A stretch of DNA of 24,000 bases from Thermoactinomyces daqus (lineage in GTDB: Bacteria; Bacillota; Bacilli; Thermoactinomycetales; Thermoactinomycetaceae). A program made the translations under genes and the position numbers. Positions 6,161-24,000 of this stretch are shown here, piece by piece. Under the pieces are notes generated by a model. That model was given only the letters and a program-made list of their open reading frames with translations, searched no databases and was not told the DNA's origin. Positions within the stretch are counted from its first letter, which is position 1; each line of letters begins with the position of its first letter. Location: NCBI RefSeq assembly GCF_000763315.1, contig NZ_JPST01000036.1, positions 2,277 to 26,276 on the forward strand. Direction: 5' to 3'.

Positions 6161-6360
6161 ATTCTCTGTCCATTGCCAAGCTTTTCCCAACACCAGCCCA
6201 TATGCCCTTTCCGCCGCGCATGCCAACCCTCCGCAAGCACAATTGTCCACATTATTCCACATCTTTTACCGCTTAAGGGGAAGCCTTTTTTTCGTTTGCC
6301 AGATGAATAATTTCTCTGAAAAAAACGACATTATATAGATGAAAAAGGAGGGATTCCCTG

Positions 6361-6732: not shown

Positions 6733-6739
6733 CAGAAAA

Positions 6740-6772
6740 GGACCTTGGCACAAAGCCAGGCCCTTTTTCTTT
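6740..6772. terminator. Shared hairpin terminator between convergent genes
   Basis: GGACCTTGGC-acaaa-GCCAGGCCC is flanked by an A-run and TTTTTCTTT. The stem is imperfect. Confidence 0.5.
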
Positions 6773-6775
6773 CAT

Positions 6776-7951: not shown

Positions 7952-8496
7952 TTTTCAGTCAGCACCCGATTTTGCCACAGATAAACGGCGGCCACCGTTT
8001 TGGCATCGCAAATCTCTCCTGATCTGATCCGTTCAAAACACTCCACCAGCGACAGCTCCATTCTCTCCACAAATTCGTCCTGATCCAGATTCACCCTGCC
8101 GGCAGCCAGATTTCTCGCCTCGTACAGGTGCAAATATTCATCGGCAAAACCCGGGGAAGTATAAAAAGAAACAACGTGTTTTACCTCGCCCGCTTTGTAT
8201 CCCGTTTCTTCCTCCAATTCCCGCTTGGCACAATCCAGCGGATCCTCCCCCGGCTCCAGCTTTCCGGCCGGAATCTCCAAAATCGTCTTCTCCAGCGGTT
8301 TTCTGAACTGACGGACAAACACCATTTTGTTTTCATCCGTTACTGCCATTACCGCGACAGCCCCGGGATGTTTCACGATTTCGCGCTTGGAGGTATTGCC
8401 GTTTGGCAACCGTACCTCGTCCACTTGCAGACGGATGACCTTTCCCTCAAACACCGTCCGGCTCGAAATGGTCTTTTCTTCCAAATCCCGTTTCAT
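7948..8496 (-). CDS. nudF: ADP-ribose pyrophosphatase (Nudix)
   Basis: The Nudix box GKLEPGEDPLDCAKRELEEETGY is present. The start is the ATG at 8496 after CAGGAGTG-N6. Its stop overlaps the next gene's start as ATGA. Confidence 0.88.
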   Translation of the reverse strand: MKRDLEEKTISSRTVFEGKVIRLQVDEVRLPNGNTSKREIVKHPGAVAVMAVTDENKMVFVRQFRKPLEKTILEIPAGKLEPGEDPLDCAKRELEEETGYKAGEVKHVVSFYTSPGFADEYLHLYEARNLAAGRVNLDQDEFVERMELSLVECFERIRSGEICDAKTVAAVYLWQNRVLTEK

Positions 8497-8524
8497 CACA
8501 GTCACTCCTGTTCACATCCTCTTC

Positions 8525-8532
8525 ATTATACA
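8525..8532 (-). promoter_or_regulatory. Extended -10 element upstream of nudF
   Basis: The minus strand reads TGTATAAT. No good -35 was found. Confidence 0.3.
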
Positions 8533-8594
8533 TATCTTGCGGGCAGAATGCGTATCAGAAAGATAATCCTCAAAATGGAAGCGAGTGAAAAAAC

Positions 8595-8747
8595 ATGAAA
8601 AAAAGATGGGACGAACGTTCTGTCTGGATCAGCGGAAAAGCATGGCAAATCCGTCTTTATCTTCACCATCTGGCCCAAAGCAACCTCACCGTCAAACAAT
8701 ATATCCGAAAGCGATCAGCCGTTTTCCACTATAATAGAAACAGATAA
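8595..8747 (+). CDS. Possible 50-aa basic mini-protein
   Basis: The ORF ATG...TAA encodes MKKRWDERSVWISGKAWQIRLYLHHLAQSNLTVKQYIRKRSAVFHYNRNR. It is below the track cutoff, has a weak RBS and no recognised family. Confidence 0.25.
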   Translation: MKKRWDERSVWISGKAWQIRLYLHHLAQSNLTVKQYIRKRSAVFHYNRNR

Positions 8748-8819
8748 AATTGACGAGCAGGGCACAGTTCTGACCATGCGGCTGCAAAAATCAGACAGAG
8801 AACAGGGAGATGATCCTTC

Positions 8820-9685
8820 TTGCTGGCAACTCTTCAGGCACTTTTGCAGGGAATTGAGAAGGAAGCTGAAATCATCCGTTACCGCCCCGTATCCGGCGGA
8901 TGCATCAATCGGTCATTTTATGTACAAACCCGGACCCGTGCCTATTTTGTCAAGGTGAATGAACAAATGGATCACCGTTTTTTTCAAGCGGAAGCTCACG
9001 GATTGAAGTTGCTGAAAAAAACAAACACCATCGCCGTTCCTGACGTAATCGGCATCAGCCGGGAAGAAACGGACAATCGCCGTTTCTCGTGTTGGAATGG
9101 ATTGACGGGGAGGAGAGCTTCCGGACCGAGGAGGAGCTCGGGCGGGGGGTGGCCGGGCTGCACCGCCACAGGGGAACGCATTTCGGATTGGAAATGGACA
9201 ATTATCTTGGCATGTTGCCGCAAAAAAACGGCTGGTCAGATGATTGGCCCGCTTTTTACCGTGACCGTCGCCTCGGAGTTCAATTGAAACTCGGACAGAA
9301 AAAAGGCGCCATCTCCCCTCTGCGCTCTCAAAAACTGGAGAGATTGATGGCCCGTCTCGATTCCTTCTTACCGGCTGATGTCACCCCATCCCTGATCCAC
9401 GGAGATTTGTGGAGCGGCAACTGGATGGCTGGTCCCGGCGGACGTCCCTATTTGATCGACCCGGCTGTCCAGTATGCCCATTCCGAGATGGAGCTGGCAT
9501 TTACCGAGCTGTTCGGCGGTTTTTCGCAGCGTTTTTACCGCGCATACACGGAGATGAATCCGCTTGATCCCGGATATGAAGAACGGAAGCCTTTATATCA
9601 GCTTTACTATCTGCTCGTGCACTTAAATATCTTTGGGGAAACCTATGGCCCGGCCGTGGACCGAATTTTGGATTATTATCTTTAA
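8820..9685 (+). pseudogene. Fructosamine/ketosamine kinase family gene with a frameshift near 9075-9090
   Basis: Two overlapping ORFs (8820..9287 and 9089..9685) together make one kinase. The N-terminal part ends ...VIGISREETDNRRF. The second frame continues LVLEWIDGEE...LIHGDLWSGNW...DPAVQYAHSEMELA. Confidence 0.8.
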
Positions 9686-9857
9686 AAATCCCCAACGTGG
9701 TCTCAGGCCGGTTCGCGTTTCTTCACTCCCAATTTTGCTTAACTTTGATGCGGTTGTATATGACAAGACATGAATGATTTCTAACATTATAGTGAAAAAA
9801 TTTCTGACTCACAAGACAGGAAATATTATTCAAGCTTATCCAAGGAGAGGATCAAAC

Positions 9858-10700
9858 TTGCACACCTCCTTCCCGACTGACAGCAAAGAGCAATTGCTGA
9901 GGGAACTCAGCCTGATTCAAAAATGGGAAAAGGATCAAAAAGATTTATGGTTTTGGGAAAAACTCGGTCGTCTTCCCTTTGTGCTTTTGGACCGCATCAC
10001 ACCCAAAGCCGTTCAGGACTTCTTGGGAAAGGTGCTGGATGAGTTGGGAGGCTTTATCCAGACAGGCGGCAAATACTTAATTTCCGAAAAAGAGATCATC
10101 AACGATTTGGAAAAGCACGCAGGTCTCCCGTCCGGCGGGCTCACGCTCGATCAGGTGGCGTCACTTCCTCTCGGTACAATGAATAAAGCGGCAGAAAAAC
10201 TGAAGGAATCCCGGAGCGAATGGGCCATGATCCAAGGAGCCACAACCGGAATCGGCGGCATTTTCACACTGGCGATCGACATCCCGGCTCTGCTCGGTCT
10301 CTCCTTGAAAGTGCTTCAGGAGATGGCTTTGGTTTATGGCTATAATCCCCTGGAAAAAAGGGAACGGATCTTTATCGTCAAGTGTCTCCAGTTCGCTTCA
10401 GCCGATTATGTGGGGAAACAGGCGGTCATTTCGTATTTAACCCGTTTTCAGGAGGGGGAAATCCAGCGGGAATCGATTTCGGAATTACAGGGATGGCGTG
10501 AAGTGGTCGCCACCTATGGCGAAAATTTCGGATGGAAGAAGCTGTTCCAAATGGTTCCCGTCATCGGAATCATCTTTGGCGCGTTTCTGAACCGTTCCAC
10601 GGTAGAAGATGTTGCAGAGGCGGGAATGATGCTGTACCGCAAGCGTCGGATTCTGGAAAAACTTGAGAGTCTCAACGCTGAACGGCATCCGAACCGCTAG
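9858..10700 (+). CDS. EcsC-family protein
   Basis: WEKDQKD...GATTGIGGIFTLAIDIPALLGLSLKVLQEMALVYGYNP parallels B. subtilis EcsC (GGLSGTGGLLLLGADIPAM...LSYGVEV). The start is placed at TTG 9858 after AGGAGAGG. The track ORF begins upstream at 9774. Confidence 0.75.
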   Translation: MHTSFPTDSKEQLLRELSLIQKWEKDQKDLWFWEKLGRLPFVLLDRITPKAVQDFLGKVLDELGGFIQTGGKYLISEKEIINDLEKHAGLPSGGLTLDQVASLPLGTMNKAAEKLKESRSEWAMIQGATTGIGGIFTLAIDIPALLGLSLKVLQEMALVYGYNPLEKRERIFIVKCLQFASADYVGKQAVISYLTRFQEGEIQRESISELQGWREVVATYGENFGWKKLFQMVPVIGIIFGAFLNRSTVEDVAEAGMMLYRKRRILEKLESLNAERHPNR

Positions 10701-10704
10701 AGTA

Positions 10705-10754
10705 ATAAAAAACGGGCCGCGATCCGCTGTTGCGGCGGATGGCCCGTTTTTTGA
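10705..10754. terminator. Bidirectional rho-independent terminator
   Basis: AAAAAACGGGCCGCGATCCGC-tgtt-GCGGCGGATGGCCCGTTTTTT forms a long GC stem with an A-run on one side and a T-run on the other. Confidence 0.75.
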
Positions 10755-10771
10755 TTTTGCATTTGAAACCG

Positions 10772-10885
10772 TTATCTGAGCAATCCAAATATCCAGCGAT
10801 GCAGTGAAGGCCATTTAAATCTCCGCAACCAGAACCATACTTTCCTGAACCACCAAATCCGCCAAATCCACCGAATAATGGCCAT
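10772..10885 (-). CDS. Candidate 37-aa Trp/Arg-rich mini-protein
   Basis: GGGGGTGTATA-ATG opens an ORF encoding MAIIRWIWRIWWFRKVWFWLRRFKWPSLHRWIFGLLR. It ends ~20 nt before the bidirectional terminator. It is not in the track because it is under 60 aa. Confidence 0.3.
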   Translation of the reverse strand: MAIIRWIWRIWWFRKVWFWLRRFKWPSLHRWIFGLLR

Positions 10886-11049
10886 TATACACCCCCGGCA
10901 AACAGGATTCGCTTCATCCTATTCCCATATGTGAAAGGTGGAAGTGCATTCTCCCCATTTCAGCCGATTTTAAACGAATGTTGACTCAAAACAAGCTCCT
11001 CCCCATCCGACCAGTTCCGGATTTGCCCTGTACAGTCAGCAAACATAAA

Positions 11050-11058
11050 TGCTAGAAT
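11050..11058 (+). promoter_or_regulatory. Extended -10 element upstream of the hemolysin III gene
   Basis: TGCTAGAAT is preceded by TGTACA at about -35. This would give a ~120-nt leader. Confidence 0.3.
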
Positions 11059-11183
11059 AGCTAACAACAAGCTGGAAAGGTGTGGGAGGCTTTAAACAAA
11101 ATTGTCTTAAAATAACGAAATCACTCCTGCTGCTCCTTTTGTGAAAGTCCGCATATGATCCTGAACCCACCGGAGGTTATGAA

Positions 11184-11849
11184 ATGAAGCGATTGAAAAT
11201 GAAAGAACCTGTTAATACCTGGACCCATTTCGTCACATTCCTTGCAGCTATTGCCGGTTTGGTGTTTCTGATCAAACTCAGCTGGTTTCACCCCTCCGCA
11301 CTCGTAACGATGACCGTCTACGGTGTGAGTGTCATTTTATTATATGGCGCCAGTTCCCTCTATCATTGGGTATCCACGACTCCGAAAAAAGAGCTTTTCC
11401 TGCGAAAGATGGATCACTGTGCGATTTATCTCTTAATTGCCGGATCCTATACCCCGGTCTTTTATTATGGCTTGGATGGCAATTGGAAATGGATCATGCT
11501 GTCCAGTGTCTGGAGCCTGGCGCTGATCGGGATCGTTTTAAAGGTGTTTTTTATCCACGTCCCCCGCTATATTTCCACGGCATTCTATGTGACACTGGGC
11601 TGGATTGCCTTGATTCCCTTCGTACAACTGATTCATAATTTGCCTGCGGGAGCGATTACCCTGATGGTCGCAGGCGGCGTTTTTTACACGATCGGCGCCA
11701 TCATCTATGCGACCAAGTGTTTTAATTTTTTCCCGAACAAATTCGGTTTCCATGAGATTTTTCATCTGTTTATCATGGCGGGAACCGCTTTTCACTTTGC
11801 GATGATGGTTCTCTATATTCTGCCGATTGGCCTGGAAACCACGCATTGA
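11184..11849 (+). CDS. Hemolysin III / PAQR-family membrane protein
   Basis: The 221-aa product has seven TM segments and conserved His motifs (SSLYHW, HEIFHLFIMAGTAFHF). The start is GGAGG-N7-ATG. Confidence 0.88.
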   Translation: MKRLKMKEPVNTWTHFVTFLAAIAGLVFLIKLSWFHPSALVTMTVYGVSVILLYGASSLYHWVSTTPKKELFLRKMDHCAIYLLIAGSYTPVFYYGLDGNWKWIMLSSVWSLALIGIVLKVFFIHVPRYISTAFYVTLGWIALIPFVQLIHNLPAGAITLMVAGGVFYTIGAIIYATKCFNFFPNKFGFHEIFHLFIMAGTAFHFAMMVLYILPIGLETTH

Positions 11850-11920
11850 ACCTGTTTCACCGCGGATGGATGAATAGATGGCACGCTTTCAATGCACACT
11901 TAATCATGTCGTTTAAAACA

Positions 11921-11951
11921 GAGGAGCATCCTCACGATGAGGACGCTCCTC
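11921..11951. terminator. Hairpin between convergent genes
   Basis: GAGGAGCATCCTCA-cg-TGAGGACGCTCCTC forms the stem. The T-rich tail (TGTTTTAAA) is only on the minus-strand side. Confidence 0.5.
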
Positions 11952-11964
11952 CCAATTTGGCTCC

Positions 11965-13110
11965 TTATTTTGATGTCGTACTGTGTACGGGAACTTTTGC
12001 GCATTCACCGACCAGCTCGACAACCAGTTCTGCCGCTTTTTCCAATTCGGCGATCGGCATTCTCTCTTTGGTTGTATGGATATTTTCATACCCGATCCCC
12101 AGATTGACCGTTGGAATGCCATGGCCGGCAATCACGTTGGCATCGCTGCCTCCGCCGCTTGCAGCAATTTTGGGCGTGCGGCCCACTTTTTCCACGGCAG
12201 CTTTCGCTTTTTTCACGACAACGTCTTCTTCCGTAAATTTAAAACCGGGATACAGCACCTTGGTTTCCACTTCGGCACGTGCGCCAAATTGCTCCGCCGC
12301 CTCTTCAAACGCTTGTACCATATGTTTAACCTGTGCGCGCAGCTTCACTTCATTGCGGCTGCGTGCTTCGGCTACGATCTCCACCCGGTCCGGAACGACA
12401 TTGCTGGCGATGCCGCCCTGAAATTTTCCTATGTTGGCTGTGGTCTCGGCATCAATGCGCCCCAGACGCATTTTTGAGATCGCCCGGCTCGCCACCTGAA
12501 TGGCGCTGATCCCATTTTCGGGATCGACACCGGCATGAGCGGACTTTCCATGAATGGTGGCCAAAATTTTCACCTGCGATGGGGCTGAGGTGATAATCGT
12601 TCCAACCGGCCCGTCCGAATCAAAGGCAAAACCAAAATCGGCATCAACCAGCTTCATCTCCAAATGACGCGAGCCAATCAACCCCGATTCTTCTCCGGCC
12701 GTAATGATCAATTGAATCTGACCGTGAGGCAGTTTTTGTTCCTGCATCACACGCAAGCCTTCCAAAAGAGCGGCAAGTCCGGCTTTATCATCGCTTCCGA
12801 GAATGGTCGTGCCATCGGAAACGATGTAATCTCCCTGAATCGACGGTTTGATCCCCTTACCGGGAGCAACCGTATCCATATGGCATGTAAAATAGATCTT
12901 CGGCGCGCCTTGTATCGTCCTCGGCATCGTGGCAATTAAGTTTCCGGCTCCGTGTCCCGTCAGCTTGGCCGAGTCATCCTCGATCACCTGCAACCCCAGC
13001 GAGGTCAATTTTTCTTTGAGAAGATCACAGATCGCTCTCTCATCACCAGTTTCACTATCCGTTGTCACTAGCTCAATAAATTCATCGATTAGGCGTTGTT
13101 TGTTTATCAA
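11965..13110 (-). CDS. M20-family metallopeptidase (YqjE / peptidase T-like)
   Basis: The metal-ligand motifs CHMDTV, GSDDKAG and TAGEESG are present. The start is placed at TTG 13110 behind GGAGG. The track ORF extends to 13242 through sequence that does not look like protein. Confidence 0.85.
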   Translation of the reverse strand: MINKQRLIDEFIELVTTDSETGDERAICDLLKEKLTSLGLQVIEDDSAKLTGHGAGNLIATMPRTIQGAPKIYFTCHMDTVAPGKGIKPSIQGDYIVSDGTTILGSDDKAGLAALLEGLRVMQEQKLPHGQIQLIITAGEESGLIGSRHLEMKLVDADFGFAFDSDGPVGTIITSAPSQVKILATIHGKSAHAGVDPENGISAIQVASRAISKMRLGRIDAETTANIGKFQGGIASNVVPDRVEIVAEARSRNEVKLRAQVKHMVQAFEEAAEQFGARAEVETKVLYPGFKFTEEDVVVKKAKAAVEKVGRTPKIAASGGGSDANVIAGHGIPTVNLGIGYENIHTTKERMPIAELEKAAELVVELVGECAKVPVHSTTSK

Positions 13111-13234
13111 CGGGGTGCGCCTCCAATCGCTATTTAAATTTCTTCCTATTTTACCACGTTCAAGCCGTTTGTCATGGGAATAATCAAGGCGATAAACGGC
13201 CAAAATACCGGGTATCCGCCAAAAATACCTAATT

Positions 13235-13357
13235 TTAACCAAATAAACCCAACATTGCTGAGAAATTGACGAAAATCAGCACGCCCTTGGAAGAAATCGA
13301 ATGAAATTTTGTGTCCCTGGCGCGGATCAAATTTCCGAAATCTTCTTTTTTATACAT
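13235..13357 (-). CDS. Possible small membrane protein, 40 aa as written and ~70 aa if a 1-nt frameshift is corrected
   Basis: ATG 13357 opens MYKKEDFGNLIRARDTKFHSISSKGVLIFVNFSAMLGLFG*. The adjacent frame continues LKLGIFGGYPVFWPFIALIIPMTNGLNVVK* to 13146. Confidence 0.25.
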   Translation of the reverse strand: MYKKEDFGNLIRARDTKFHSISSKGVLIFVNFSAMLGLFG

Positions 13358-13603
13358 TTTCCCCGATCACCATCGTTTTATTCACCGATGACCCTCATCC
13401 GTGAATCTCCGCCGCAACCATCCTCCGTCCCGTCTGCCGGCGAAGTGCCTTGGCCAAACAGGGCTTGCCCCTGACGGCCAGTTTGGCCTTGACCGAATGG
13501 TATGCCCTGCATACAATCGCGCCACCCGGCCCATCGTTTTCCAACGTGAACGATCCACGGAACCCCGGATAAAGAAAATCTCCTTATTCACTTTATCCCT
13601 CCA

Positions 13604-15151
13604 TTATAACGGAATATTGCCGTGCTTTTTCGGCGGGCGTGTCTCCCGTTTGTTTCGCAGGATCTCCAAGGCGGTTTTTAATTTTTGTCTCGTTTCCCGC
13701 GGATCAATGACATCGTCAACCATTCCATGGGCTGCTGCGATATACGGGTTGGAAAACTTCTCTTTGTATTCTTCGATTCTGCGTTTTCTCGTTTCCTCCG
13801 GATGCTCGCTCTCCTCAATCTCCCTGCTGAAAATGATATTGGCCGCGCCTTCCGCCCCCATGACGGCAATTTCCGCACTGGGCCACGCGTAGACAAGATC
13901 TGCGCCGATCGCTTTGCTGTTGAGCGCCACATACGCCCCGCCGAATGCTTTGCGCAAAATGATCGTAATTTTCGGCACGGTCGCTTCCGAATAAGCGTAC
14001 AGGATTTTGGCGCCATGGCGGATGATCCCGTGATGTTCCTGGTTGACTCCCGGGAAAAAGCCGGTGACATCCACGAAAGTAATGATGGGAATGTTGAAAC
14101 TGTCACAGAAGCGAATAAAGCGGCTCAATTTATCCGATGCATCAATATCCAGGCTTCCTGCCATCACTTTCGGCTGATTGGCGGCAATTCCCACCGTCCG
14201 TCCGCCGATTCTGGCAAATCCGACGACGATATTGCGGGCAAAATCGGGATGAACTTCCATGAAATCCCCTTGATCGACAATCAGTTGGATCACTTGTTTT
14301 ACATCGTAGACCCGGCTGCCGTCAACGGGAACGGCCCCGGCCAGCTCTTCGATCCAGCCATCATCCTCTTTTTCATAGACTCGCGGCGGGTCTTCCATAT
14401 TGTTTTGCGGCAAATAACTCATTAAACGGCGGACTTGTTCCAGCACCTCCGGTTCGGTGGCAGCCGTGAAATGGACGTTGCCGCTCAGGCTGGCATGGAC
14501 TTCGGCTCCCCCCAGCTCTTCTGCGGAAATTTTCTCCTTGGTCACCGCTTCGATTACTTTTGGGCCGGTGATGAACATCTGGCTTGTATTTTGCACCATA
14601 AAGACAAAATCGGTAATCGCCGGAGAATAAACCGCTCCCCCGGCACACGGACCCATGATGACGGAAATCTGCGGAATCACCCCGGAGTAGATCGAATTCC
14701 GGTAAAAAATGTGGCCGTATCCGTCCAGAGAGACAACCCCCTCCTGAATGCGCGCTCCCCCCGAGTCATTGAGTCCGATGACCGGAGCTCCGTTTTTTGC
14801 GGCCAAATCCATCAGGCGGGCGATCTTTAAAGCATGCATCTCTCCCAGCGCACCGCCAAACACGGTAAAATCTTGGGCAAACACATACACATCCCGTCCG
14901 TGGATCTTTCCGTAACCGGTCACCACGCCTTCCCCCGGCGCTTCTGTTTGATCCATGCCAAAATGGGTGGCGCGATGCTCGATAAACGGATTGAGTTCCA
15001 CAAAAGAGCCTTCATCCACCAACAGGTCAATGCGTTCCCTTGCGGTCAGCTTTCCGCGTTTGTGCTGGGAGCGGATCCGCAATTCCCCGCCGCCCTGCTC
15101 AACTTTGGCCCGTTTTTGATTCAGTTCCTCAATCTTTTGATACATATCCAT
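13604..15151 (-). CDS. Acyl-CoA carboxyltransferase (propionyl-CoA carboxylase beta / methylmalonyl-CoA decarboxylase alpha type, YqjD-like)
   Basis: The ~515-aa product is colinear with carboxyltransferase-domain proteins (...GKLTARERIDLL...GGARIQEG...MGPCAGGAVYSPA...). The start is uncertain between 15151 and 15172. Confidence 0.9.
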   Translation of the reverse strand: MDMYQKIEELNQKRAKVEQGGGELRIRSQHKRGKLTARERIDLLVDEGSFVELNPFIEHRATHFGMDQTEAPGEGVVTGYGKIHGRDVYVFAQDFTVFGGALGEMHALKIARLMDLAAKNGAPVIGLNDSGGARIQEGVVSLDGYGHIFYRNSIYSGVIPQISVIMGPCAGGAVYSPAITDFVFMVQNTSQMFITGPKVIEAVTKEKISAEELGGAEVHASLSGNVHFTAATEPEVLEQVRRLMSYLPQNNMEDPPRVYEKEDDGWIEELAGAVPVDGSRVYDVKQVIQLIVDQGDFMEVHPDFARNIVVGFARIGGRTVGIAANQPKVMAGSLDIDASDKLSRFIRFCDSFNIPIITFVDVTGFFPGVNQEHHGIIRHGAKILYAYSEATVPKITIILRKAFGGAYVALNSKAIGADLVYAWPSAEIAVMGAEGAANIIFSREIEESEHPEETRKRRIEEYKEKFSNPYIAAAHGMVDDVIDPRETRQKLKTALEILRNKRETRPPKKHGNIPL

Positions 15152-15214
15152 CTCTCTGTCGCTCCCCATCAAGTTTTATCCTGGATATCCTTTCCACAAG
15201 ATTGGCAAAAGCGT

Positions 15215-15631
15215 TCAATCTTCAACCAAATGATTCGGTTCGCACAGTTCCACCAGAACGCCGCCCGCCTGTTTGGGATGTAAGAAGGCGATATTCATCT
15301 GATGCGCGCCGGGCTTGGGCCTTTCATTGATGAGGCGAACCCCTTTTTCGCGCAGGGCTTTGAGGCGCTCCTCCAATTCCTCCACCTCGAGGGCAATATG
15401 GTGAATTCCTTCTCCAAACCTGGCAATATATTTGGCGATGGCACTGTTTTCCGAAAGCGGTTCCAGCAATTCAATCCGGCTCTCCCCCACTTTAAAAAAG
15501 GCCACCCGTACCTGCTCGCTCTCGACGGTTTCGATCCCCTCCAGCGGCAATTCCAGCACATCTTGATACCAGGAACAGGAAGTGTCGAGATTTTTCACGG
15601 CGATGCCGATGTGGCTGATCTTTTTAGCCAT
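15215..15631 (-). CDS. mce: Methylmalonyl-CoA epimerase (VOC family)
   Basis: The 138-aa product reads ISHIGIAVKNLD...RIELLEP...GEGIHHIALEV. Its ATG lies inside the last codons of the upstream gene, an 8-nt overlap. Confidence 0.88.
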   Translation of the reverse strand: MAKKISHIGIAVKNLDTSCSWYQDVLELPLEGIETVESEQVRVAFFKVGESRIELLEPLSENSAIAKYIARFGEGIHHIALEVEELEERLKALREKGVRLINERPKPGAHQMNIAFLHPKQAGGVLVELCEPNHLVED

Positions 15632-16040
15632 TTTTCATCCCCTCCCTGTCCAAAACGGCTTGGCGAATAAAATCCGCTGTCTCCTTGGTCGTAGTTCCGG
15701 AGGTGAAAATCTCCGCGATTCCCTGCTCTTTTAAAAAAGGGATGTCGGCTTGCGGAATCACACCGCCGCCCACAACAATGATATCCTCCGCTCCCTGTTC
15801 CCTGAGCAGGCGCACCACCTCCGGAAACAGCTCATTATGGGCTCCGGACAGGCAGGATAATCCGATCACATCCACATCCTCCTGAATGGCTGTAGCCACA
15901 ATTTGTGCCGGAGACTGCCGCAAACCGGTATAAATCACTTCCATCCCTTCATCGCGCAGTGCTTGGGCAATGATTAACGCTCCGCGATCATGCCCGTCGA
16001 GCCCCGGCTTTGCCACCAAGACGCGAATTGGTCTGTTCAT
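15624..16040 (-). CDS. Methylmalonyl-CoA mutase, B12-binding small subunit
   Basis: MNRPIRVLVAKPGLDGHDRGA carries the DxHxxG cobalamin-binding motif. The start is the ATG at 16040 after GAGGGAGG. The track ORF carries an unlikely N-terminal extension. Confidence 0.9.
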   Translation of the reverse strand: MNRPIRVLVAKPGLDGHDRGALIIAQALRDEGMEVIYTGLRQSPAQIVATAIQEDVDVIGLSCLSGAHNELFPEVVRLLREQGAEDIIVVGGGVIPQADIPFLKEQGIAEIFTSGTTTKETADFIRQAVLDREGMKNG

Positions 16041-16054
16041 TTTGCTTCCTCCCT

Positions 16055-17698
16055 CTATACCGATTGATATTCGCCGAAAACACCACGGAGTGTATGGCAA
16101 ATTTCACCAACCGTCGCATACGCTTTTACCGCTTCCAGAATTCGTGGCATCAAGTTTTCCGATGTCTGTGCCGCCTGTTTCAGCCGGTCCAGACATGCTT
16201 TCACCTTCCCGGCATCCCGCTGTGAACGGACGCGTTTCAATTTTTCAATCTGCTGTGTGGCGATTTGCGGATCTACCCGCATCAGTCCGGGCTGTTCCTC
16301 CTGCTCCAGCCGGAAACGATTGACGCCGACCACCACTTCTTCACCGGATTCAATCTTCCGCTGGGTATCAAGGGCGGTACGCCGGATCTCCCCTTGCATG
16401 AACCCTTGTTCAATCGCTTGGACAGCCCCGCCCATCGCATCGATCTTTTCAATATATTCAAGTGCCGCCTGTTCAATCTGATCTGTGAGCGCCTCAATGA
16501 AATACGATCCTCCCAACGGATCAACCGTGTCGGCGACTCCGCTTTCGTAAGCGATGATCTGTTGCGTCCTCAGGGCGATACGGGCTGATTCCTCCGTGGG
16601 CAAAGCCAGCGCCTCATCGCGCGAGTTCGTATGCAGGCTTTGCGTTCCCCCCAGCACCGCGGCCAATGCCTGCAGCGTAACCCGGACAATATTGTTATCC
16701 GGCTGTTGCGCGGTGAGGGTGGAACCCCCGGTCTGCGTGTGAAAACGCAATTGTAACGAGCGCTCGTTCGAGGCATGGAAACGCTCCCGCATGATTTTCG
16801 CCCATAACCGCCTCGCTGCCCGGAATTTGGCGATCTCCTCAAAAAAGTGATTGTGCGCGTTGAAGAAAAAAGATAAACGCGGAGCGAATTGATCTACTTC
16901 GAGGCCGGCCTTCAGCGCCGCTTCGACATAGGCGATCCCGTTTGCCAGCGTAAACGCGACTTCCTGAACCGCGGTGGAACCAGCTTCCCGAATGTGATAA
17001 CCGCTGATGCTGATCGTATTCCATTTGGGCACTTCTTTCGCACAATACGCAAAAATATCCGTGATCAGCCGCATCGACGGTTTGGGTGGAAAAATATAAG
17101 TGCCGCGCGCCACATATTCCTTCAAAATATCGTTTTGAATCGTCCCGCGCAGCTGGTGTGGCTTCACTCCTTGTTTTTCTCCGACGGCAATGTACATTGC
17201 CAGCAAAATGGCGGCCGGCGCATTAATCGTCATCGATGTGCTCACTTTATCCAGGGGAATTCCGGCAAACAAGGCTTCCATGTCCTGCAAACTGTCAATC
17301 GCCACTCCGACCTTGCCCACTTCGCCCGTTGCCATCGGATCATCGGAGTCATAACCGATCTGCGTGGGTAAATCAAATGCGACGCTCAGCCCGGTTTGCC
17401 CCTGCTTCAACAGATAGTGAAAGCGCTGGTTTGTCTCCTCCGCAGTTCCGAAACCGGCATATTGACGCATGGTCCACAAGCGGCTTCGGTACATCGTCGG
17501 CCGAATTCCTCTGGTGTACGGAAATTCTCCCGGCAGTTCCTCATCTTCCCGTGCCCTGTCCTCTTTGGTATATAAACGCTTCACTTCGATGCCGGAAAGC
17601 GTAGTAAACGGGTTTTTGCGTTCAGGAGATTTGGCCAATAAAGTCTCCGTTTTCTCTTCCCACTTTTGGATCCGTTCGTTCCATCTCTCTTTCTCCAC
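16055..17698 (-). CDS. Methylmalonyl-CoA mutase, catalytic large subunit
   Basis: The 547-aa product contains [15 protein letters not shown] and [21 protein letters not shown]. The Tyr and Arg at the substrate-specificity positions favour methylmalonyl-CoA mutase over isobutyryl-CoA mutase. The GTG start follows GGAGAGGAG. Confidence 0.92.
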
Positions 17699-17723
17699 GC
17701 GGACAATCTCCTCTCCATCTGAA

Positions 17724-17752
17724 ATAAAACGCTTTCACTTCTTAATATAACA
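17724..17752 (-). promoter_or_regulatory. Extended -10 promoter plus a cre-like site upstream of the mutase operon
   Basis: The minus strand has TGTTATATT at 17744-17752. It is followed by TGAAAGCGTTTTAT (17724-17737), which matches about 12 of 14 positions of the CcpA cre consensus TGWAANCGNTNWCA. Confidence 0.35.
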
Positions 17753-17933
17753 AATATTTATCCTGTTTGGATTCTTAATTATTGGCCGATAGATAGACAT
17801 CATCAGAACAGTCGATTAAAATAAATGATTGAGGCCGTCTATTTTCATGTTTTTTTCACTGGAAGTTGATTTATACTGATTAGTGAAAACGCTGTAGCAA
17901 AGCGCGGATGAAAGAGGAAAGCGGGTGTGAAAC

Positions 17934-18110
17934 GTGCAATACTTTATGGTTCCATTACTGGTCTTGATCAGCATTTTCGCGATTCGCGGCACCTATTACA
18001 ACAAAAAGACCGGCAACAAGCCGGGTTTCATCATCGGCGGAATCTTCACATTGGGTCTCGTCGGTGTCACTGTACTCGCTTTGTATGATTTCTTTGTCGG
18101 TCTGCAATAA
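17934..18110 (+). CDS. Possible 58-aa two-TM mini-protein
   Basis: The ORF GTG...TAA encodes VQYFMVPLLVLISIFAIRGTYYNKKTGNKPGFIIGGIFTLGLVGVTVLALYDFFVGLQ. A strong terminator follows immediately. The start codon is uncertain (GTG 17934 or ATG 17946). Confidence 0.45.
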   Translation: MQYFMVPLLVLISIFAIRGTYYNKKTGNKPGFIIGGIFTLGLVGVTVLALYDFFVGLQ

Positions 18111-18114
18111 GAGT

Positions 18115-18153
18115 GAGGAGACTCCACTAGGCACGGAGTCTCCTCATTTTTTT
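18115..18153 (+). terminator. Rho-independent terminator
   Basis: GAGGAGACTCC, a 9-nt loop and GGAGTCTCCTC are followed by ATTTTTTT. Confidence 0.8.
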
Positions 18154-18208
18154 AACGCATCGGATCATAGCGAAGGGATCGCTGTGCGTTCCCGGCTTCA
18201 CCAGTTTG

Positions 18209-19033
18209 TCACAGCGATTTAAACTGTTCCACCTGAGACCGGATTGCCTTTTCCGTAGGCAGTCTCTCTATGCTGGATGCTCCGAAGAATCCGGCCACCC
18301 CTTTGGTGGATGCGAGGATTTTTTGCACATCGGCCGGTTCGGCAATCGGTCCGCCATGGCACAAGACGATGATGTCCGGATTCACCTCTTTTGCCGCATC
18401 ATGTATGGCTTGAATCCGTTCAGCTGATTCTTCCAGCGTGAGCGCTGTCTCCGCGCCGATTGATCCTTTGGTGGTCAGACCCATATGGGCAACCAGCACA
18501 TCCGCTCCTGCTTCTGCCATCGCAATCGCTTCCCGTTGGTTAAATACATAGGGACAGGTAAGCAGATCCAATTCATGGGCGATTCGGATCATTTCGACTT
18601 CCAGGTTGAACCCCATTCCCGTTTCTTCGAGATTTTGGCGAAACACCCCGTCGATCAGGCCGACAGTGGGGAAATTTTGTACTCCGTCAAAGCCCATCTC
18701 TTTCAATTGTTTGAGAAACACGGGCATCTGACGGAAGGGATCTGTTCCGCACACTCCGGCCAAGACAGGAGTGTTTTTGACAATCGGCAATACCTCCGCT
18801 GCCATTTCCACCACAATCCCGTTCGCGTCTCCATAAGGCATCAGCCCGGCAAGTGAACCGCGGCCGGCCATGCGGTACCGACCCGAATTATAAATAATGA
18901 TGAGATCTGCGCCACCCTGTTCGGCGAATTTGGCGGAAATGCCTGTCCCCGCACCGCAGCCGATAATCACCGATCCGTCTTCGATCGTCTGTTTCAAGCG
19001 CTTCAGTGCATCATCACGAGTGATAAAAGGCAT
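18209..19033 (-). CDS. Phosphoenolpyruvate-hydrolase-like TIM-barrel protein (PF09370-type)
   Basis: The 274-aa product reads ...[49 protein letters not shown]..., typical of this family. It normally pairs with a UPF0261 gene. Confidence 0.8.
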
Positions 19034-19047
19034 AAAAAAACCCCCTC

Positions 19048-19410
19048 TTATTTTTCTTCATTTTGCAGAAATTCAAGCAGTTTATCCGTCACGGCCCGGG
19101 CGAATAAGGGATCGTTAATATTGCAGTCAAGTTCGATAATCGGGATTTCGCTCTTTGTATTCTTCTTGATCGCATCAAACAGAGCCTGATCAGCTTCCGG
19201 CCACCAAAAGTCTCTATCCGGGGCATCCAATTCGGATATGCCCTGAAGCGGAAGGAAAATGGCGACAGGCCCTTTGGACTGGTTTGCCTTCTCGGCCAGA
19301 ATCCGGCCCAGTTCTTCATTCTCTTCCGGAGTGGTTCTCATCAGCGTGACATTCTCATTCCAGGCATAGAGTAACCGGTTTTTATACTTGTCGGGTACAC
19401 CTGAAGTCAC
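19048..19410 (-). pseudogene. C-terminal fragment (~120 aa) of a UPF0261 / Tm-1-like ATP-binding protein
   Basis: VPDKYKNRLLYAWNENVTLMRTTPEENEELGRILAEKANQSKGPVAIFLPLQGISELD... corresponds to the C-terminal part of proteins that are normally ~400 aa. The reading frame runs into AT-rich foreign sequence and meets TGA TGA at 19429-19434. Confidence 0.75.
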
Positions 19411-19491
19411 ATTTGCTAAAAACTTTTTTCATCATGTATGTAACGTCAGGTTATTCGATGTCACCAAAAAACACTCTGGGAGGAATTCAAA

Positions 19492-20484
19492 ATGAAAAAA
19501 CATATCAAAGGCCAACAAGTTGAACGGAAAGGTTTGCACCATGTTTATGGAGAACCTGCTGACAATTTCAATAATCGCTGGCAACCAATGGCCTACACCA
19601 CAAAAGAAATGAATGAATGGGCAATCGAAGCAAAACCTTTTGTTGAATGGGCACAAAATGAAACTGATCCACAAAAGCAAAAAGAAATTCTTGAAATGTC
19701 AGTTGGTTTGAACAAGTTGATGAACATCTATTTTGGTTATCGTGGTGAAGGCGGGAAAAATGACGTTCAACGGTTGACAGAAAAACTTTGGTATCCACTT
19801 CCCGATGAATCAATTATCACAAACAATGCTTGGAAGCTGCTGAAGGAAGCAATTCTTGAATACGACATTTCAATTGGTGATTTCAAACCGTTCTATGACA
19901 AAAAGTTGAAAAAACGTGCAACATCGGATTTGAACAAAGTAAAGGAAAATCGTGCAGAAAAGCAGGTCCCAGTCAGTCAATTGGAATCATACAAATCTAA
20001 GAATTCAAATGATGATGCTGATCAGTCGGAATTTGTTTATGGAATCGTCGAAGATAACTACTCACTTGAAGTTGATGACGAACTTCAATATTACGTGAAG
20101 AGATTGTTGAAGAATATTCCGGGAAGAAAAAATGCCAAAGAAAAACAAAAATTCATCCTTGATTTTATCATAAAAGATATGGTGAAGTCACAAACCGAAA
20201 GGAAAGCATTGATTGAACGGAAATTCCCAACAAAAGAAGTTGCTGAAAATTTAACAGAAAAATTTGGTGGAACTTTTGATGCAAATAAACGGTTTGTCAT
20301 TCGTTTCAGAGAGCAAGCAATGGAAGAACTTGAATTGCTTGGGCACAAATTGAACACCACTTACACCAACGACAAAAAAGTGCTGAAAGAACGGAATATG
20401 AAAAAATTCTTCAACAAAGAAACACACGAGAAAAACAAGCACTATTCAGAATACCTGGAAAAATTCAAGAAAGGTCTTGCTTAA
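19492..20484 (+). CDS. Hypothetical 330-aa protein with weak sigma-70-like region 2 / region 4 features
   Basis: GGGAGG-N8-ATG start. AWKLLKEAILEYDISIGDFKPFYDKKLKKRATSDL resembles sigma region 2. ERKALIERKFPTKEVAENLTEKFGGTFDANKRFVIRFREQAMEEL resembles region 4. This assignment is only a hypothesis. Confidence 0.7.
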   Translation: MKKHIKGQQVERKGLHHVYGEPADNFNNRWQPMAYTTKEMNEWAIEAKPFVEWAQNETDPQKQKEILEMSVGLNKLMNIYFGYRGEGGKNDVQRLTEKLWYPLPDESIITNNAWKLLKEAILEYDISIGDFKPFYDKKLKKRATSDLNKVKENRAEKQVPVSQLESYKSKNSNDDADQSEFVYGIVEDNYSLEVDDELQYYVKRLLKNIPGRKNAKEKQKFILDFIIKDMVKSQTERKALIERKFPTKEVAENLTEKFGGTFDANKRFVIRFREQAMEELELLGHKLNTTYTNDKKVLKERNMKKFFNKETHEKNKHYSEYLEKFKKGLA

Positions 20485-20520
20485 AATAGATAACTTGTAG
20501 AATTTGCAGATTTCAAACAA

Positions 20521-20546
20521 GGTGGGGAAATTCAACCTTCCCCACC
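20521..20546 (+). terminator. Hairpin after the 330-aa gene
   Basis: GGTGGGGAA, an 8-nt loop and TTCCCCACC form the stem. An A-run rather than a T-run follows on the + strand, so terminator function is uncertain. Confidence 0.35.
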
Positions 20547-20574
20547 ACAAAAAAAATTTCTCCTTATGTCACCT

Positions 20575-20603
20575 TTGAGTAAAACGTTCCCCATATATAT
20601 AGT
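20575..20603 (+). promoter_or_regulatory. Candidate SigA-type promoter
   Basis: TTGAGT-N17-TATAGT. The predicted transcript start would fall in or after the GAGGAGG RBS of the next gene, which argues against it or implies a very short leader. Confidence 0.3.
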
Positions 20604-20618
20604 GAGGAGGTAAAAACA

Positions 20619-20879
20619 ATGAAAAACAAAACAAAAGAACAACTGAAAATTTGGTCCGCTGGAAATGGTCGGTTCTTCGCTTACACTGAAAACTTGAAGC
20701 TGAAAAACAAACTGGAAAGCATTGATGGAATTAGATTGATTGGATCATATCATACGCAGAAAGGTAAATTGTTTGGCCTTCAATTTGTGATTGACAATAT
20801 TGAACTTAAAGAACATTTTGTCAAAATTGCTAAAGATGGAAACGTTGCAGAAACTAAAAAGCAACTTTCACTTTTCTAA
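20619..20879 (+). CDS. Hypothetical 86-aa protein
   Basis: The ORF has a GAGGAGG-N8-ATG start. No family was recognised. Confidence 0.65.
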   Translation: MKNKTKEQLKIWSAGNGRFFAYTENLKLKNKLESIDGIRLIGSYHTQKGKLFGLQFVIDNIELKEHFVKIAKDGNVAETKKQLSLF

Positions 20880-20894
20880 AAGGAGGAATTGAAG

Positions 20895-21101
20895 ATGAAA
20901 AAATCCCAGACAAAAACAATCTGTTGTGTCATTTGTGGTGCAGAAGAAGCAGTCAATGAGAAAACTTCCACTGATGGAATTGCACCTGATTGGTTCATCT
21001 TTAATGAAACGATTAATGAATTTGTTTGTTCTTGGGAATGTGATGAAATTGCAGAAGGAATGTTCAATTGTGGTTCTGGATATTTCATTGAGGAAATTTG
21101 A
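20895..21101 (+). CDS. Cys-rich 68-aa protein, a putative zinc-binding protein
   Basis: AAAGGAGG-N7-ATG start. Cysteines are arranged CCVIC...CSWEC...C. Confidence 0.6.
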   Translation: MKKSQTKTICCVICGAEEAVNEKTSTDGIAPDWFIFNETINEFVCSWECDEIAEGMFNCGSGYFIEEI

Positions 21102-21114
21102 GGAGGTGTAGAAA

Positions 21115-21546
21115 TTGCCTAAAGAAAAATTGCCATCTGCAAAAAATTGGCGGGAACGGAAAATTGAAACCTGGAATGCGACAACTTTTCATGAATATTT
21201 GAAACATAAACATCAGGAGAGATTTTCCCTTTCCTATCGGGCAGGCAACATTAGAGGCCAGAATTCACAGATAAAACGGTTGTATGAAGAAATCGGAAAA
21301 GAAGCAACTAAGGAATTCATTGACCTGTGCTTCCAAACCTACAAACCAAGGCAAGGTTACAATAGTTTAAATTTCTTTTACATGATTAGAAGCATGAATT
21401 TCCTGATCCCAAAAGCAGTTGACAACATTGAACGGAAAAGAAAAATTGCAGAAATGAAACAACGTCAACAACAACAAGAAATTCAACAACCTGAAGTTAA
21501 TAAAGGTGAAGTTGAAAACATTCTTAAATATTGGGGGATTGAGTAA
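21115..21546 (+). CDS. Hypothetical 143-aa protein (basic N-terminus, Gln-rich C-terminus)
   Basis: AGGAGG-N8-TTG start. Its TAA stop overlaps the ATG of the next gene (TAATG). No family was recognised. Confidence 0.65.
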   Translation: MPKEKLPSAKNWRERKIETWNATTFHEYLKHKHQERFSLSYRAGNIRGQNSQIKRLYEEIGKEATKEFIDLCFQTYKPRQGYNSLNFFYMIRSMNFLIPKAVDNIERKRKIAEMKQRQQQQEIQQPEVNKGEVENILKYWGIE

Positions 21547-22331
21547 TGAGAAAAACTAATGAAAAGAATTGCATTCTTCGGGGAGTTTGTGTAAAAGCAG
21601 GTTCTGAATCGCATTGTAATAAACTTTGTCCACTTTACAATTCTATGCACGGTCATAAAGGAATAGGTGGTCGTGTAGCAATGGCAAACATTCCAAAGGA
21701 TTATCAGAAAATGACCATTTCTCACAATCCAGTTCGTGAAGTACAAAAACAAGCATATTTCCTGATTGACCGTTGGGCAAAGAAGTTTTTCCCTCTGATC
21801 TTTGAAGAAAATGCGGAAAGAATTAAACCACTTTACCTTTATTCAAAAGAAGTCGGAACCGGAAAAACAGCAACTGCTGCTTCTATTGCAAATTCATTTT
21901 TGGTTTACACCTTCACAGAAGCATTGAAACGTGGACAGCAGCCATTAGAACGTCCAGTATATTTCTTGGATTTTAACCAATGGCAAAGGGAATTTGCTGC
22001 TTTCAATAATCCAAAGATTCCCCGTGATATGGGAGAAAAAATGGCACGTAAGTTTTACGAAATCCGGGATATTGCAAAGGACGTTCTTTTACTTGTGGTT
22101 GATGATATTGGAATTGAGGACCCAAGCAATGCTTTCCATGGAATTGCCCATGATTTGATCAACCACAGACTTGTGAATTGGTTGCCCACAATATTTACGT
22201 CAAACGTTGAGATGGAAGATTTGCTTTTACGTTATGATAAACGGCTATTTGATCGAATTCGAGACCACAATTCCCAAATTGAATTCATTGGAACTTCCCA
22301 CCGTGGAATGAGACAGGATTTTGACGTTTAA
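21546..22331 (+). CDS. DnaC/DnaI-like AAA+ helicase loader
   Basis: Walker A is SKEVGTGKTATA and Walker B is LLLVVDDIG. The N-terminal Cys/His cluster CILRGVCVKAGSESHCNKLCPLYNSMHGH resembles the DnaI zinc module. Confidence 0.8.
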   Translation: MRKTNEKNCILRGVCVKAGSESHCNKLCPLYNSMHGHKGIGGRVAMANIPKDYQKMTISHNPVREVQKQAYFLIDRWAKKFFPLIFEENAERIKPLYLYSKEVGTGKTATAASIANSFLVYTFTEALKRGQQPLERPVYFLDFNQWQREFAAFNNPKIPRDMGEKMARKFYEIRDIAKDVLLLVVDDIGIEDPSNAFHGIAHDLINHRLVNWLPTIFTSNVEMEDLLLRYDKRLFDRIRDHNSQIEFIGTSHRGMRQDFDV

Positions 22332-22344
22332 GGGGGAAACCTGA

Positions 22345-23190
22345 ATGGATTATAAATCGAAGTTCAAAATTGGTGATTTGGTTGTTGTAAAAAAGATTCC
22401 TAATGAAGTTTGGAAAATTGATACCATTCATTATGGAGTGGTCAATTTTTACTACATCATCAATACAATGTCGAATCTTCCTTATTTCTGTGCAGAATTT
22501 GAACTTGAACATGCAGAAATGGGTTCAGATCGAAATTCTAAATTTAAGGTTGGGGATTTGGTTGTTGATAAAACTATGCCTGATGCTGTTTTTAAAGTTG
22601 AAGAAATTAATTATGGAAAAATGAATGGGTACACAGTGAGTGATTTACAAAACGGAACCTTATTCTATTTTTTGGAAATTGAACTTGAACATGCAGAACC
22701 GTCAAAACCAGAACTAAAATTGATTGGATCAAAATTCAAACCTGGTGACATCGTGATGGTTGATGGATATATTGGACAATTTAAAGTAATTGAATGTACT
22801 GGTTATGAACCAATGGTTGAAGATGTTATTTATAAATTGATCAATATTCACACTGGTGAAGAAGTTTTTGGTGCTGAATGGGATATGAAATTTTTTGGTA
22901 AGAAAAATGAAATAATCAATATAAAATTGAATGTTGAAACTGGTTATATTGAACAATTGCCAAAGAAACAACCACAACCAAAGAAAACACCAAAACATAG
23001 AACACTTGAAGCTGGAATTATTTCCAAACTTGAATACAATAGATTCCTTGTAGAAAAAGGAAAACAAATGATTGATGATTATCTTGATTTATTTAGTAAT
23101 TTTGGTGACGAAAAATACCTAAGGAGAATCAAACGGATCAACAATTTTATCAATAAAATTCCTGTTCGTGCATTTCAAATTGAAGATTGA
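22345..23190 (+). CDS. Protein with three tandem ~60-aa repeats and a helical C-terminal tail
   Basis: Repeats begin SKFKIGDLVVVKK, SKFKVGDLVVDKT and SKFKPGDIVMVDG. Repeats 1 and 2 both end E(F/I)ELEHAE. GGGGGAAA-N5-ATG start. Confidence 0.75.
   Translation: MDYKSKFKIGDLVVVKKIPNEVWKIDTIHYGVVNFYYIINTMSNLPYFCAEFELEHAEMGSDRNSKFKVGDLVVDKTMPDAVFKVEEINYGKMNGYTVSDLQNGTLFYFLEIELEHAEPSKPELKLIGSKFKPGDIVMVDGYIGQFKVIECTGYEPMVEDVIYKLINIHTGEEVFGAEWDMKFFGKKNEIINIKLNVETGYIEQLPKKQPQPKKTPKHRTLEAGIISKLEYNRFLVEKGKQMIDDYLDLFSNFGDEKYLRRIKRINNFINKIPVRAFQIED
22357..22902 (+). repeat. Three tandem ~180-190-nt coding repeats
   Basis: Repeat units start at 22357, 22537 and 22729. The shared exact strings are gatttggttgttg and gaacttgaacatgcagaa. 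Repeat 3 is more diverged. Confidence 0.7.
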
Positions 23191-23206
23191 ATGGGAGGAA
23201 TTTTGA

Positions 23207-24000
23207 ATGACCATTGCAAGCATGAAATTCTTTTCAAAAATGCTCGATCTGAAATTTACTGATGCATTTGTTCAATACGGAATTACTGAAGAAAAATTGA
23301 CCACAAAAACAGAACGGGAAATTTTCAACTTCATTGACGAATACATCACCAGAAATGGTGAAACTCCCACGCCTGAAGAAATTGCAGTTAAGTTTGAAGG
23401 GTTTGTTTATACTCCAACCAATTCTTCCTTTGATGTTTTGGCTGAAGAAATTAATCAAAACCACGCAAAGAATGAATTGATCCGATTGATTCAAGGAAGG
23501 ATTAACGCTGAAGATGAATTTGAGAAGAAAGAAAACCTGAATGATCTTTTGAACAAAAAGTCAGGGTTTGAATTGATTGATCTGTTGCAGAAGCAATTGG
23601 AACAAATTAAAACGGAGACTTTGACACAAAAGAAAGTTGGCCTTTCTTTAACTGAAGATTATGATTGGTTCTTTGAAGAGTACGAAAACCGGAAACAAGG
23701 GAAATCGTTTAAAGTTTGGGAATCGAAATTCCCTAAACTGAATCGTGTTTTAGGTGGTGGTTATGTTTCTGGCAACCTTTACACCTTTTATGGTCGATCT
23801 GGTCGTGGTAAGTCAATCATCATGTTGGAAGAAGCAATAAACGCAGCAGTTCACGGTGCAAAAGTTTTGTATTGGGGATTGGAAATGATTGCTTTTGAAA
23901 TGTTTTGTAGGGCTTATGCATCTTTATCCTCCCGTCAGAAATTGTTTAGGGGAAGTTTGACAGACGAACAATTGCAGCAGATTTTTGGTAACAGTGATGA
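23207..24000 (+). CDS. DnaB-type replicative helicase (5' part, open at the window end)
   Basis: GGGAGG-N8-ATG start. The frame is open for all 264 remaining codons. LNRVLGGGYVSGNLYTFYGRSGRGKSIIMLEEA is the DnaB-family Walker A region. It is absent from the ORF track because no stop lies in the window. Confidence 0.85.
   Translation, partial: MTIASMKFFSKMLDLKFTDAFVQYGITEEKLTTKTEREIFNFIDEYITRNGETPTPEEIAVKFEGFVYTPTNSSFDVLAEEINQNHAKNELIRLIQGRINAEDEFEKKENLNDLLNKKSGFELIDLLQKQLEQIKTETLTQKKVGLSLTEDYDWFFEEYENRKQGKSFKVWESKFPKLNRVLGGGYVSGNLYTFYGRSGRGKSIIMLEEAINAAVHGAKVLYWGLEMIAFEMFCRAYASLSSRQKLFRGSLTDEQLQQIFGNSD

Follow-up and report, generated by a model that had tools for sequence, protein, structure and literature searches.

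Probable left attachment site of a serine-integrase prophage within a UPF0261 gene of Thermoactinomyces daqus

Among phages with three-domain serine integrases, A118 integrates in comK and Bxb1 integrates in groEL1. The known intervening elements of endospore formers lie in the sporulation genes sigK, spsM, gerE, and yabG. In SPbeta, the attachment (att) sites have in common a short conserved core, attP is symmetric but attB is not, and the strands cross over at a central dinucleotide; the minimal sites are 44 to 52 bp (PMC5499854). Here we describe a stretch of 24,000 nt from Thermoactinomyces daqus (contig NZ_JPST01000036.1, positions 2,277 to 26,276 of the forward strand), referred to as the window. 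Window positions 19391-19412 are very probably the centre of attL of an intact prophage, which a serine integrase inserted in a UPF0261 gene. The event type is well known. UPF0261 was previously unrecorded as a target gene. The integrase/att pair, a previously undescribed temperate phage, and a duplicated P' arm are also new.

The intact UPF0261 gene has 407 codons. It is uninterrupted and lies directly upstream of a PEP-hydrolase gene in 9 of 10 distinct contig contexts, which are those returned for the 100% identical PEP-hydrolase protein. The contigs with an empty site include assemblies of Thermoactinomyces sp. CICC 10521 and 10523. The DNA of the nine empty-site contigs matches the window without a difference up to 19398. 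In every empty-site strain, 14 nt separate UPF0261 from the PEP-hydrolase gene. A scan of genome contigs with the intact UPF0261 protein gave no Thermoactinomyces genome among its matches.

The window was compared base by base with an intact gene (locus L007). The two are 100% identical from the stop codon at 19048 to 19398 and are unrelated from 19399. Host homology thus ends between 19398 and 19399, and the break falls after codon 291 of the intact gene (…NFWGMST / VPDKYKN…). The initial annotation had put this end at 19408-19417, and the true position is 10-19 nt further left. Its reading of the open reading frame (ORF) at 19048..19410 (minus strand) as the C-terminal part of a family of about 400 amino acids (aa) was correct. 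The ORF covers just positions 105-217 of 218 in Pfam UPF0261_C (E 1.9e-37), and the orthologous proteins of Laceyella, Thermoflavimicrobium, Seinonella, Kroppenstedtia, and further genera have 401-409 aa. The 120-aa ORF is annotated as "Tm-1-like ATP-binding domain-containing protein" on T. daqus contig JACEIP010000010.1 (116,220 bp; assembly GCA_013867735.1). Its first four codons (GTG ACT TCA GGT, 19399-19410) are phage DNA. The GC content changes at 19.4 kb, with about 0.50-0.53 on the left side and about 0.35 on the right. It is 0.496 in 1..19398 and 0.353 in 19399..24000, in agreement with the sharp drop described earlier. The TGATGA described at 19429-19434 is also present, on the minus strand. 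The same junction was found in the independent read sets DRR818982 and DRR818983.

The 5' piece of the gene was found in two T. daqus entries of 296 aa (P0363) and 294 aa (P0364) on the same 116-kb contig. Their accessions are WP_235281701.1 and MBA4542944.1, and they cluster with the intact protein at 90% identity. Both entries finish …NFWGMSTVPDVT. The GenBank protein accessions of the C-terminal fragment (MBA4542865) and the N-terminal fragment (MBA4542944) are 79 apart. The two fragments overlap by exactly the codons V-P-D, and the presence of these codons in both indicates a shared core. The 291 host codons are not deleted but displaced to the far side of the prophage. The initial annotation had suggested a search for the missing N-terminal part, with its absence taken as a sign of deletion rather than integration. 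The 296/294-aa fragment, recovered beyond the far limit of the AT-rich block, speaks for integration and for a gene-splitting element, and no sequence was lost in the split. The features at the junction are as follows.

18209..19033, minus strand: PEP-hydrolase-like gene, downstream operon partner of the split gene (Pfam PEP_hydrolase, E 5e-136).
19048..19398, minus strand: host remnant, codons 292-407 plus stop, which is the B arm of attL (identity to L007; Pfam UPF0261_C).
19375..19423, no strand: putative attL, about 24 bp each side of the crossover, with an extent taken from typical large-serine-recombinase sites.
19391..19398, no strand: 8-bp core TCGGGTAC, common to attB, attP, and attL, and the sole block identical in attB (L007) and attP (contig L037).
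19399..19412, no strand: P half-site ACCTGAAGTCACAT, identical in attL (window and contigs L036 and L038) and attP (L037), and itself an inverted copy of the P' arm at 11/14.
19399..24000, plus strand: left end of the prophage (identity to provirus positions 1-4509; phage gene content).
19424..19451, plus strand: extra copy of the P' arm, TTTTTCATCATGTATGTAACGTCAGGT, with a half-site at 19438-19451 (alignment to the true P' arm; motif match).

The first phage gene was looked up in Logan and gave three short contigs, L036, L037, and L038. Two of them (from DRR818982 and DRR818983) match the window junction. The third (L037, from SRR24893683) differs left of the breakpoint, where it has a different AT-rich 30 nt. 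On the gene strand these 30 nt contain GTA CCC GAT GTT ACA TGA, which reads V-P-D-V-T-stop. The annotated N-terminal fragment ends in exactly this phage-derived tail. In L037 the two ends of the phage, far and near, are therefore joined, and the contig is attP. Joined phage ends exist in at least one sample, with an excised circle or free phage as their source.

In window orientation, attB is …TATACTTG TCGGGTAC GGTGGACATCC…, attP is …CATGTAACA TCGGGTAC ACCTGAAGTCACAT…, and attL is …TATACTTG TCGGGTAC ACCTGAAGTCACAT…. The attP forms a dyad, ATGTAACATCGGGT-AC-ACCTGAAGTCACAT, which is 11/14 complementary about the AC at 19397-19398. With each of 19 other positions taken as the centre, the match was at most 7/14. 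The attB has no clear symmetry. The AC at 19397-19398 is the predicted crossover dinucleotide, as read from this dyad. A hybrid of the left of attP and the right of attB translates to …PGCLDMVNFWGMSTVPDVT and a stop, which equals the C-terminus of P0363 (…VPDVT and stop). The attR (P'-core-B') is predicted to read …AATCATGTAACATCGGGTAC joined to GGTGGACATCCCCC…, that is, TCTACTTTTTAATCATGTAACATCGGGTAC and then GGTGGACATCC. The exchange is conservative, with no host base gained or lost and no target duplication or deletion. For this comparison the attL DNA was read directly, and attR was taken from the translation match with P0363.

The far end of the prophage encodes a 512-aa protein with the domains, in order, PF00239 Resolvase (E 2.8e-31), PF07508 Recombinase (E 1e-28), and PF13408 Zn_ribbon_recom (E 2.2e-14). 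It is a large serine recombinase because it has these three domains. It also contains a YARVS motif near the N-terminus. Of the solved structures it is most similar to SPbeta SprA/YokA (E 7.7e-23; phmmer match over residues 58-454), and the A118 and TP901-1 structures are also among the solved-structure matches. The gene faces attR. The provirus record stops exactly at the recombinase stop codon, which places the far junction just beyond it. On JACEIP010000010.1, whose coordinates run 2355 above those of the window, this stop codon would be at about 81,264. The 103-aa ORF upstream of the integrase gene has no family match.

The proposed insertion would begin with integrase dimers bound to the symmetric attP and to attB, within UPF0261 codons 289-295, and with synapsis of the two sites. 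Both would be cut at the central AC, and rotation and religation would then exchange the halves conservatively. The phage would be inserted linearly, with the integrase gene beside attR and the replication module beside attL. The far end would carry the 5' piece, which has the 291 host codons and the shared V-P-D, followed by V-T-stop from the phage. The near end would carry the 3' piece, codons 292-407. Precise excision by the same recombinase together with a directionality factor would restore the gene.

Several points weigh against this account. No recombination directionality factor or repressor was identified in the element. The attP is known from one short Logan contig with 30 nt of the P' arm, and exact-match scans (P' plus core, core plus P) of IMG/VR and the JGI metagenomes gave no further copy. 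The AC was placed by symmetry alone, and it sits at the edge, not the middle, of the shared 8 bp. The sole evidence for attR is a protein C-terminus, as the provirus record stops before the far junction.

The left ends of all three Logan contigs fall at the same place, exactly 30 nt before the crossover. Logan is a de Bruijn assembly with k=31. The shared starts would fit a 30-mer with two continuations, which would be attB and attL in DRR818982/3 and attR and attP in SRR24893683. If so, populations of lysogenic cells and of nonlysogenic or excised cells were mixed.

The initial annotation had described an inverted repeat around a 29-nt spacer as the core of a hybrid att site. The hybrid att site of a site-specific recombinase is borne out by the recombinase, attP, and the N-terminal fragment, but the inverted repeat and its spacer are not the core. 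The true core and crossover lie at 19391-19398, just left of the repeat. The 9/11 repeat itself is present as described (CCTGAAGTCAC at 19400-19410 and GTAACGTCAGG at 19440-19450). With the arms extended to 14 nt (19399-19412 and 19438-19451), the match is 12/14. The repeat was also considered as the P/P' pair of one att site and was rejected. The true P' belongs to the far end of the prophage, and the second arm, at a distance of about 40 bp from the crossover, falls beyond the limits of a normal att site.

The second arm is instead an extra copy of P'. Its alignment to the true P' arm spans about 27 nt and includes a 4-nt insertion. The score was 27, compared with a shuffle mean of 14.7 (standard deviation, 2.9), and 3 of 2000 shuffles reached it. 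The motif ATGTRACNTCNGGT, taken from P and P', occurs in the window only at the two arms of the repeat, compared with 0.01 expected, and that expectation is generous because the motif was defined after the sites had been seen. It occurs nowhere else in the 59.5-kb element. The layout of the joined phage ends is P'-AC-P-25 nt-P' copy, which puts the extra arm, about 40 bp from the crossover, beyond the normal att site of about 50 bp. The extra arm may have been left behind by a duplication, or it may be an accessory site for integrase binding. Such a copy is not known from the described serine-integrase att sites, those of A118, phiC31, Bxb1, and TP901-1 included.

The UPF0261 gene is inactivated by the insertion. 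The 5' piece is probably expressed as a 296-aa truncated protein, and the 3' part is promoterless. No obvious ribosome-binding site precedes the phage-derived GTG of the 3' piece, as judged by reading the sequence. A scan for sigma-70 promoters and terminators around the junction gave no more than chance. The PEP-hydrolase gene is likely severed from its promoter with polar loss of function, since the native promoter is about 59.5 kb away and there is no excess of sigma-70-like promoters nearby. The sole characterised activity of UPF0261 is that of an ATP-dependent aromatic kinase (MarK; PMC12624787).

Other host genes were noted around the pair. Downstream of UPF0261 and PEP-hydrolase (window 13604..17698 and the L007 context) are genes for a methylmalonyl-CoA mutase with a B12-binding subunit, a glyoxalase-family protein, and a carboxyltransferase. 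The glyoxalase-family protein is possibly an epimerase. A YutH/CotS-like kinase gene is directly upstream of the intact UPF0261 operon and divergent from it.

The element corresponds to IMG/VR provirus IMGVR_UViG_2617271285_000009. It contains 59,418 bp, and the GC content is 0.371. Base 1 of the record is window position 19492, and the 4,509-nt overlap with the window (19492-24000) is identical. The provirus sequence was built from five overlapping loci, which joined without conflict. With about 79 genes, the prophage has a full length of at least 59,511 bp. Its genes in the window are as follows.

19492..20484, plus strand: first phage gene, its start 93 nt past the junction and its product 330 aa (ORF with no assigned function).
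21546..22331, plus strand: DnaC-like helicase loader (phrog_50, E 2.9e-37).
23207..24000, plus strand: 5' part of a DnaB-like replicative helicase gene, complete at 482 aa in L002 (phrog_19, E 6.7e-33).

From the near end to the far end, the element encodes replication genes (plus strand), lysis and tail genes (minus strand), and then capsid, scaffold, portal, and large terminase. These are followed by a methyltransferase, ribonucleotide reductase, and a sigma-factor/exonuclease-like protein. The last genes toward the far end encode a family-A DNA polymerase, a tetratricopeptide repeat (TPR) regulator, and the 512-aa recombinase. The statement that every gene flips to the plus strand holds within the window but fails beyond it, where the late genes are on the minus strand again. 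Terminase, portal, scaffold, capsid, tail, holin, amidase, DnaB, DnaC, primase, PolA, and ribonucleotide reductase are all present. The phage gene set is complete, and the element is a temperate siphovirus-type prophage. The family-A DNA polymerase (locus L034, 5502..8942) is in parts of 595 aa and 376 aa with a 142-aa HNH_3 endonuclease ORF between them, which suggests interruption by a homing endonuclease or intron.

The nearest phages by large terminase are Bacillus 268TH002 and phi18-2, Sporosarcina Lietuvens, and Paenibacillus larvae Unity and Halcyone. These phages of Firmicutes are 50-68 kb and have a related large terminase, yet the terminase identity is just 48-51%. DNA similarity to any deposited phage is limited to about 200 bp of the helicase gene. 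No characterised prophage of the genus Thermoactinomyces was found in a literature search. A related provirus, IMGVR_UViG_2910729224_000001 (L030 and L035; 61,388 bp), encodes tail and early proteins that are 71-76% identical. It encodes a serine integrase that is 49% identical, and it has neither a homologue of the 330-aa gene nor a UPF0261 flank. It probably uses a different attachment site. Its record is also trimmed at the integrase and so gives no att information.

A new integrase is thus defined with its attB, attP, attL, 8-bp core, and predicted crossover. As the host is a thermophile, the integrase may tolerate heat and could be an orthogonal tool for genome engineering. A complete temperate Thermoactinomyces phage is also now described. 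The insertion itself adds one more reversible disruption of a host gene by a phage, and it is important only if excision is regulated or the duplicated P' arm is functional.

Regulated excision is the best of the other explanations, and we consider it unlikely. It takes the same prophage to be a gene-splitting element whose programmed excision, in the mother cell or on a peptide signal, reconstitutes the UPF0261/PEP-hydrolase operon at need, much as skin restores sigK and SPbeta restores spsM. The host is an endospore former, as the initial annotation stated, with spoIIM in the window at 3645..4286. The nearest solved relative of the recombinase is SprA, and the split is conservative, so excision would restore the gene. 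The YutH/CotS-like gene directly upstream of the intact operon and the TPR regulator and small secreted-peptide-like ORF that adjoin the integrase gene also count in its favor. Against these, UPF0261 has no known sporulation role, and no sporulation link was mentioned in the literature found. A crude scan gave no sigma-E or sigma-K consensus near the integrase gene and one sigma-K-like match in 59.4 kb. The 9 of 10 contexts without the element indicate that it was gained recently and sporadically and is no fixed device of development. Many serine-integrase phages also insert in ORFs without a regulatory role. The sporulation-coupled or active-lysogeny switch raised in the initial annotation thus gained no supporting evidence.

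The regulator beside the integrase gene (L034, 2063..3577) is TPR rich and contains 450 aa. A 45-aa ORF (MKNALIVMFVLLLSVFIVNAEDGQTILTQDHYAFESAQMGEPWCC) follows 25 nt on. The N-terminus of its product is hydrophobic and resembles a signal peptide. The TPR repeats are strong in Pfam, and Pfam gave no helix-turn-helix domain. A search of PDB gave generic TPR matches and none to AimR, Rap, NprR, or PlcR. The layout of a TPR receptor and a propeptide ORF is like that of RRNPP/arbitrium systems, but the TPR receptor there usually has a helix-turn-helix domain. It is a little less probable still that the prophage is a conditional switch, with excision gated by this TPR-receptor/peptide cassette or by sporulation and restoring the UPF0261/PEP-hydrolase operon beside the YutH-like spore-coat gene. 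If it were, active lysogeny would control one more gene, a metabolic kinase gene in the Thermoactinomycetaceae. In that case the extra P'-like arm could be an accessory integrase-binding site that tunes directionality.

The initial annotation had offered a deletion-scarred cryptic prophage as its alternative. Here, one phage end and the 5' 70% of the host gene would be lost, and the junction would be the scar. No integrase or repressor gene is beside the junction inside the window, as such a scar would allow. The integrase gene is at the other end, attP was recovered, the phage gene set is complete, and the 5' fragment is on the same contig and overlaps the 3' fragment by exactly V-P-D. These findings refute a deletion scar, to which we give almost no weight. 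We give as little to readings with no mobile-element junction, in which the gene is short by nature or the break stems from a frameshift or the assembly: other short UPF0261_C proteins on long contigs do prove to be frameshifts or contig ends, but here the homology has an abrupt end, past which the GC content steps down and phage genes follow, the junction is repeated in DRR818982 and DRR818983, and orthologues of about 405 aa (401-409 aa in other genera) exclude a naturally short gene.

Recurrent targeting of UPF0261 in other taxa was also considered and rejected. P0023 and P0035 were rejected as frameshift fragments in error-rich assemblies. P0002 was rejected as a further split UPF0261 gene; it is cut by a contig end, with host sequence up to that end. 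The UPF0261 orthologue of Thermoactinomyces mirandus is in pieces of 308 aa (P0260) and 97 aa (P0058), on contigs both recorded at 6,201 bp. The pieces are presumably on one contig, and the cause is probably a frameshift, not an insertion. Two metagenome contigs from different samples, L041 and L042 (JGI 3300080630 and 3300081793), each stop 27-28 nt upstream of the point that corresponds to the crossover. They encode an orthologue that is 75% identical, with host sequence to the contig end, and the 8-bp core is not conserved. The two ends may agree by chance, or the assembly may have broken where the site is polymorphic.

An intact prophage inserted by a serine integrase remains the preferred reading, and its closest described counterpart is SPbeta with SprA-SprB in spsM of B. 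subtilis (PMC4191935, PMC5499854). In both, the recombinase gene is at the prophage end and the insertion is in a protein-coding gene of a spore former. Both have a symmetric attP, an asymmetric attB, a short core, and a central-dinucleotide crossover, the last inferred here. They differ in that the similarity to SprA is distant, the core is 16 bp in SPbeta and 8 bp here, and the phage is 134 kb in SPbeta and 59.5 kb here. There is no detectable common gene order. The target is a metabolic kinase-family gene here and a sporulation gene there, no SprB-like factor was found, and a crude consensus scan gave no sporulation promoter near the integrase gene. Like skin, SPbeta, vfbin, gin, and yin, the element is a serine-recombinase element that splits a coding gene of an endospore former. 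Unlike them, it interrupts a gene without a known sporulation role. It shares with A118, phiC31, Bxb1, and TP901-1 a three-domain integrase, att sites of about 40-50 bp, and a conservative exchange, here with a predicted 2-bp stagger. In those phages the gene is likewise disrupted on lysogeny, and it is restored on excision, as predicted here. The target gene and att sequence are different, and the extra P'-like arm is present here. As in the catalogued large serine recombinase/att pairs (Durrant et al. 2022, PMC10083194), comparison of the empty and occupied sites defines attB and attP.

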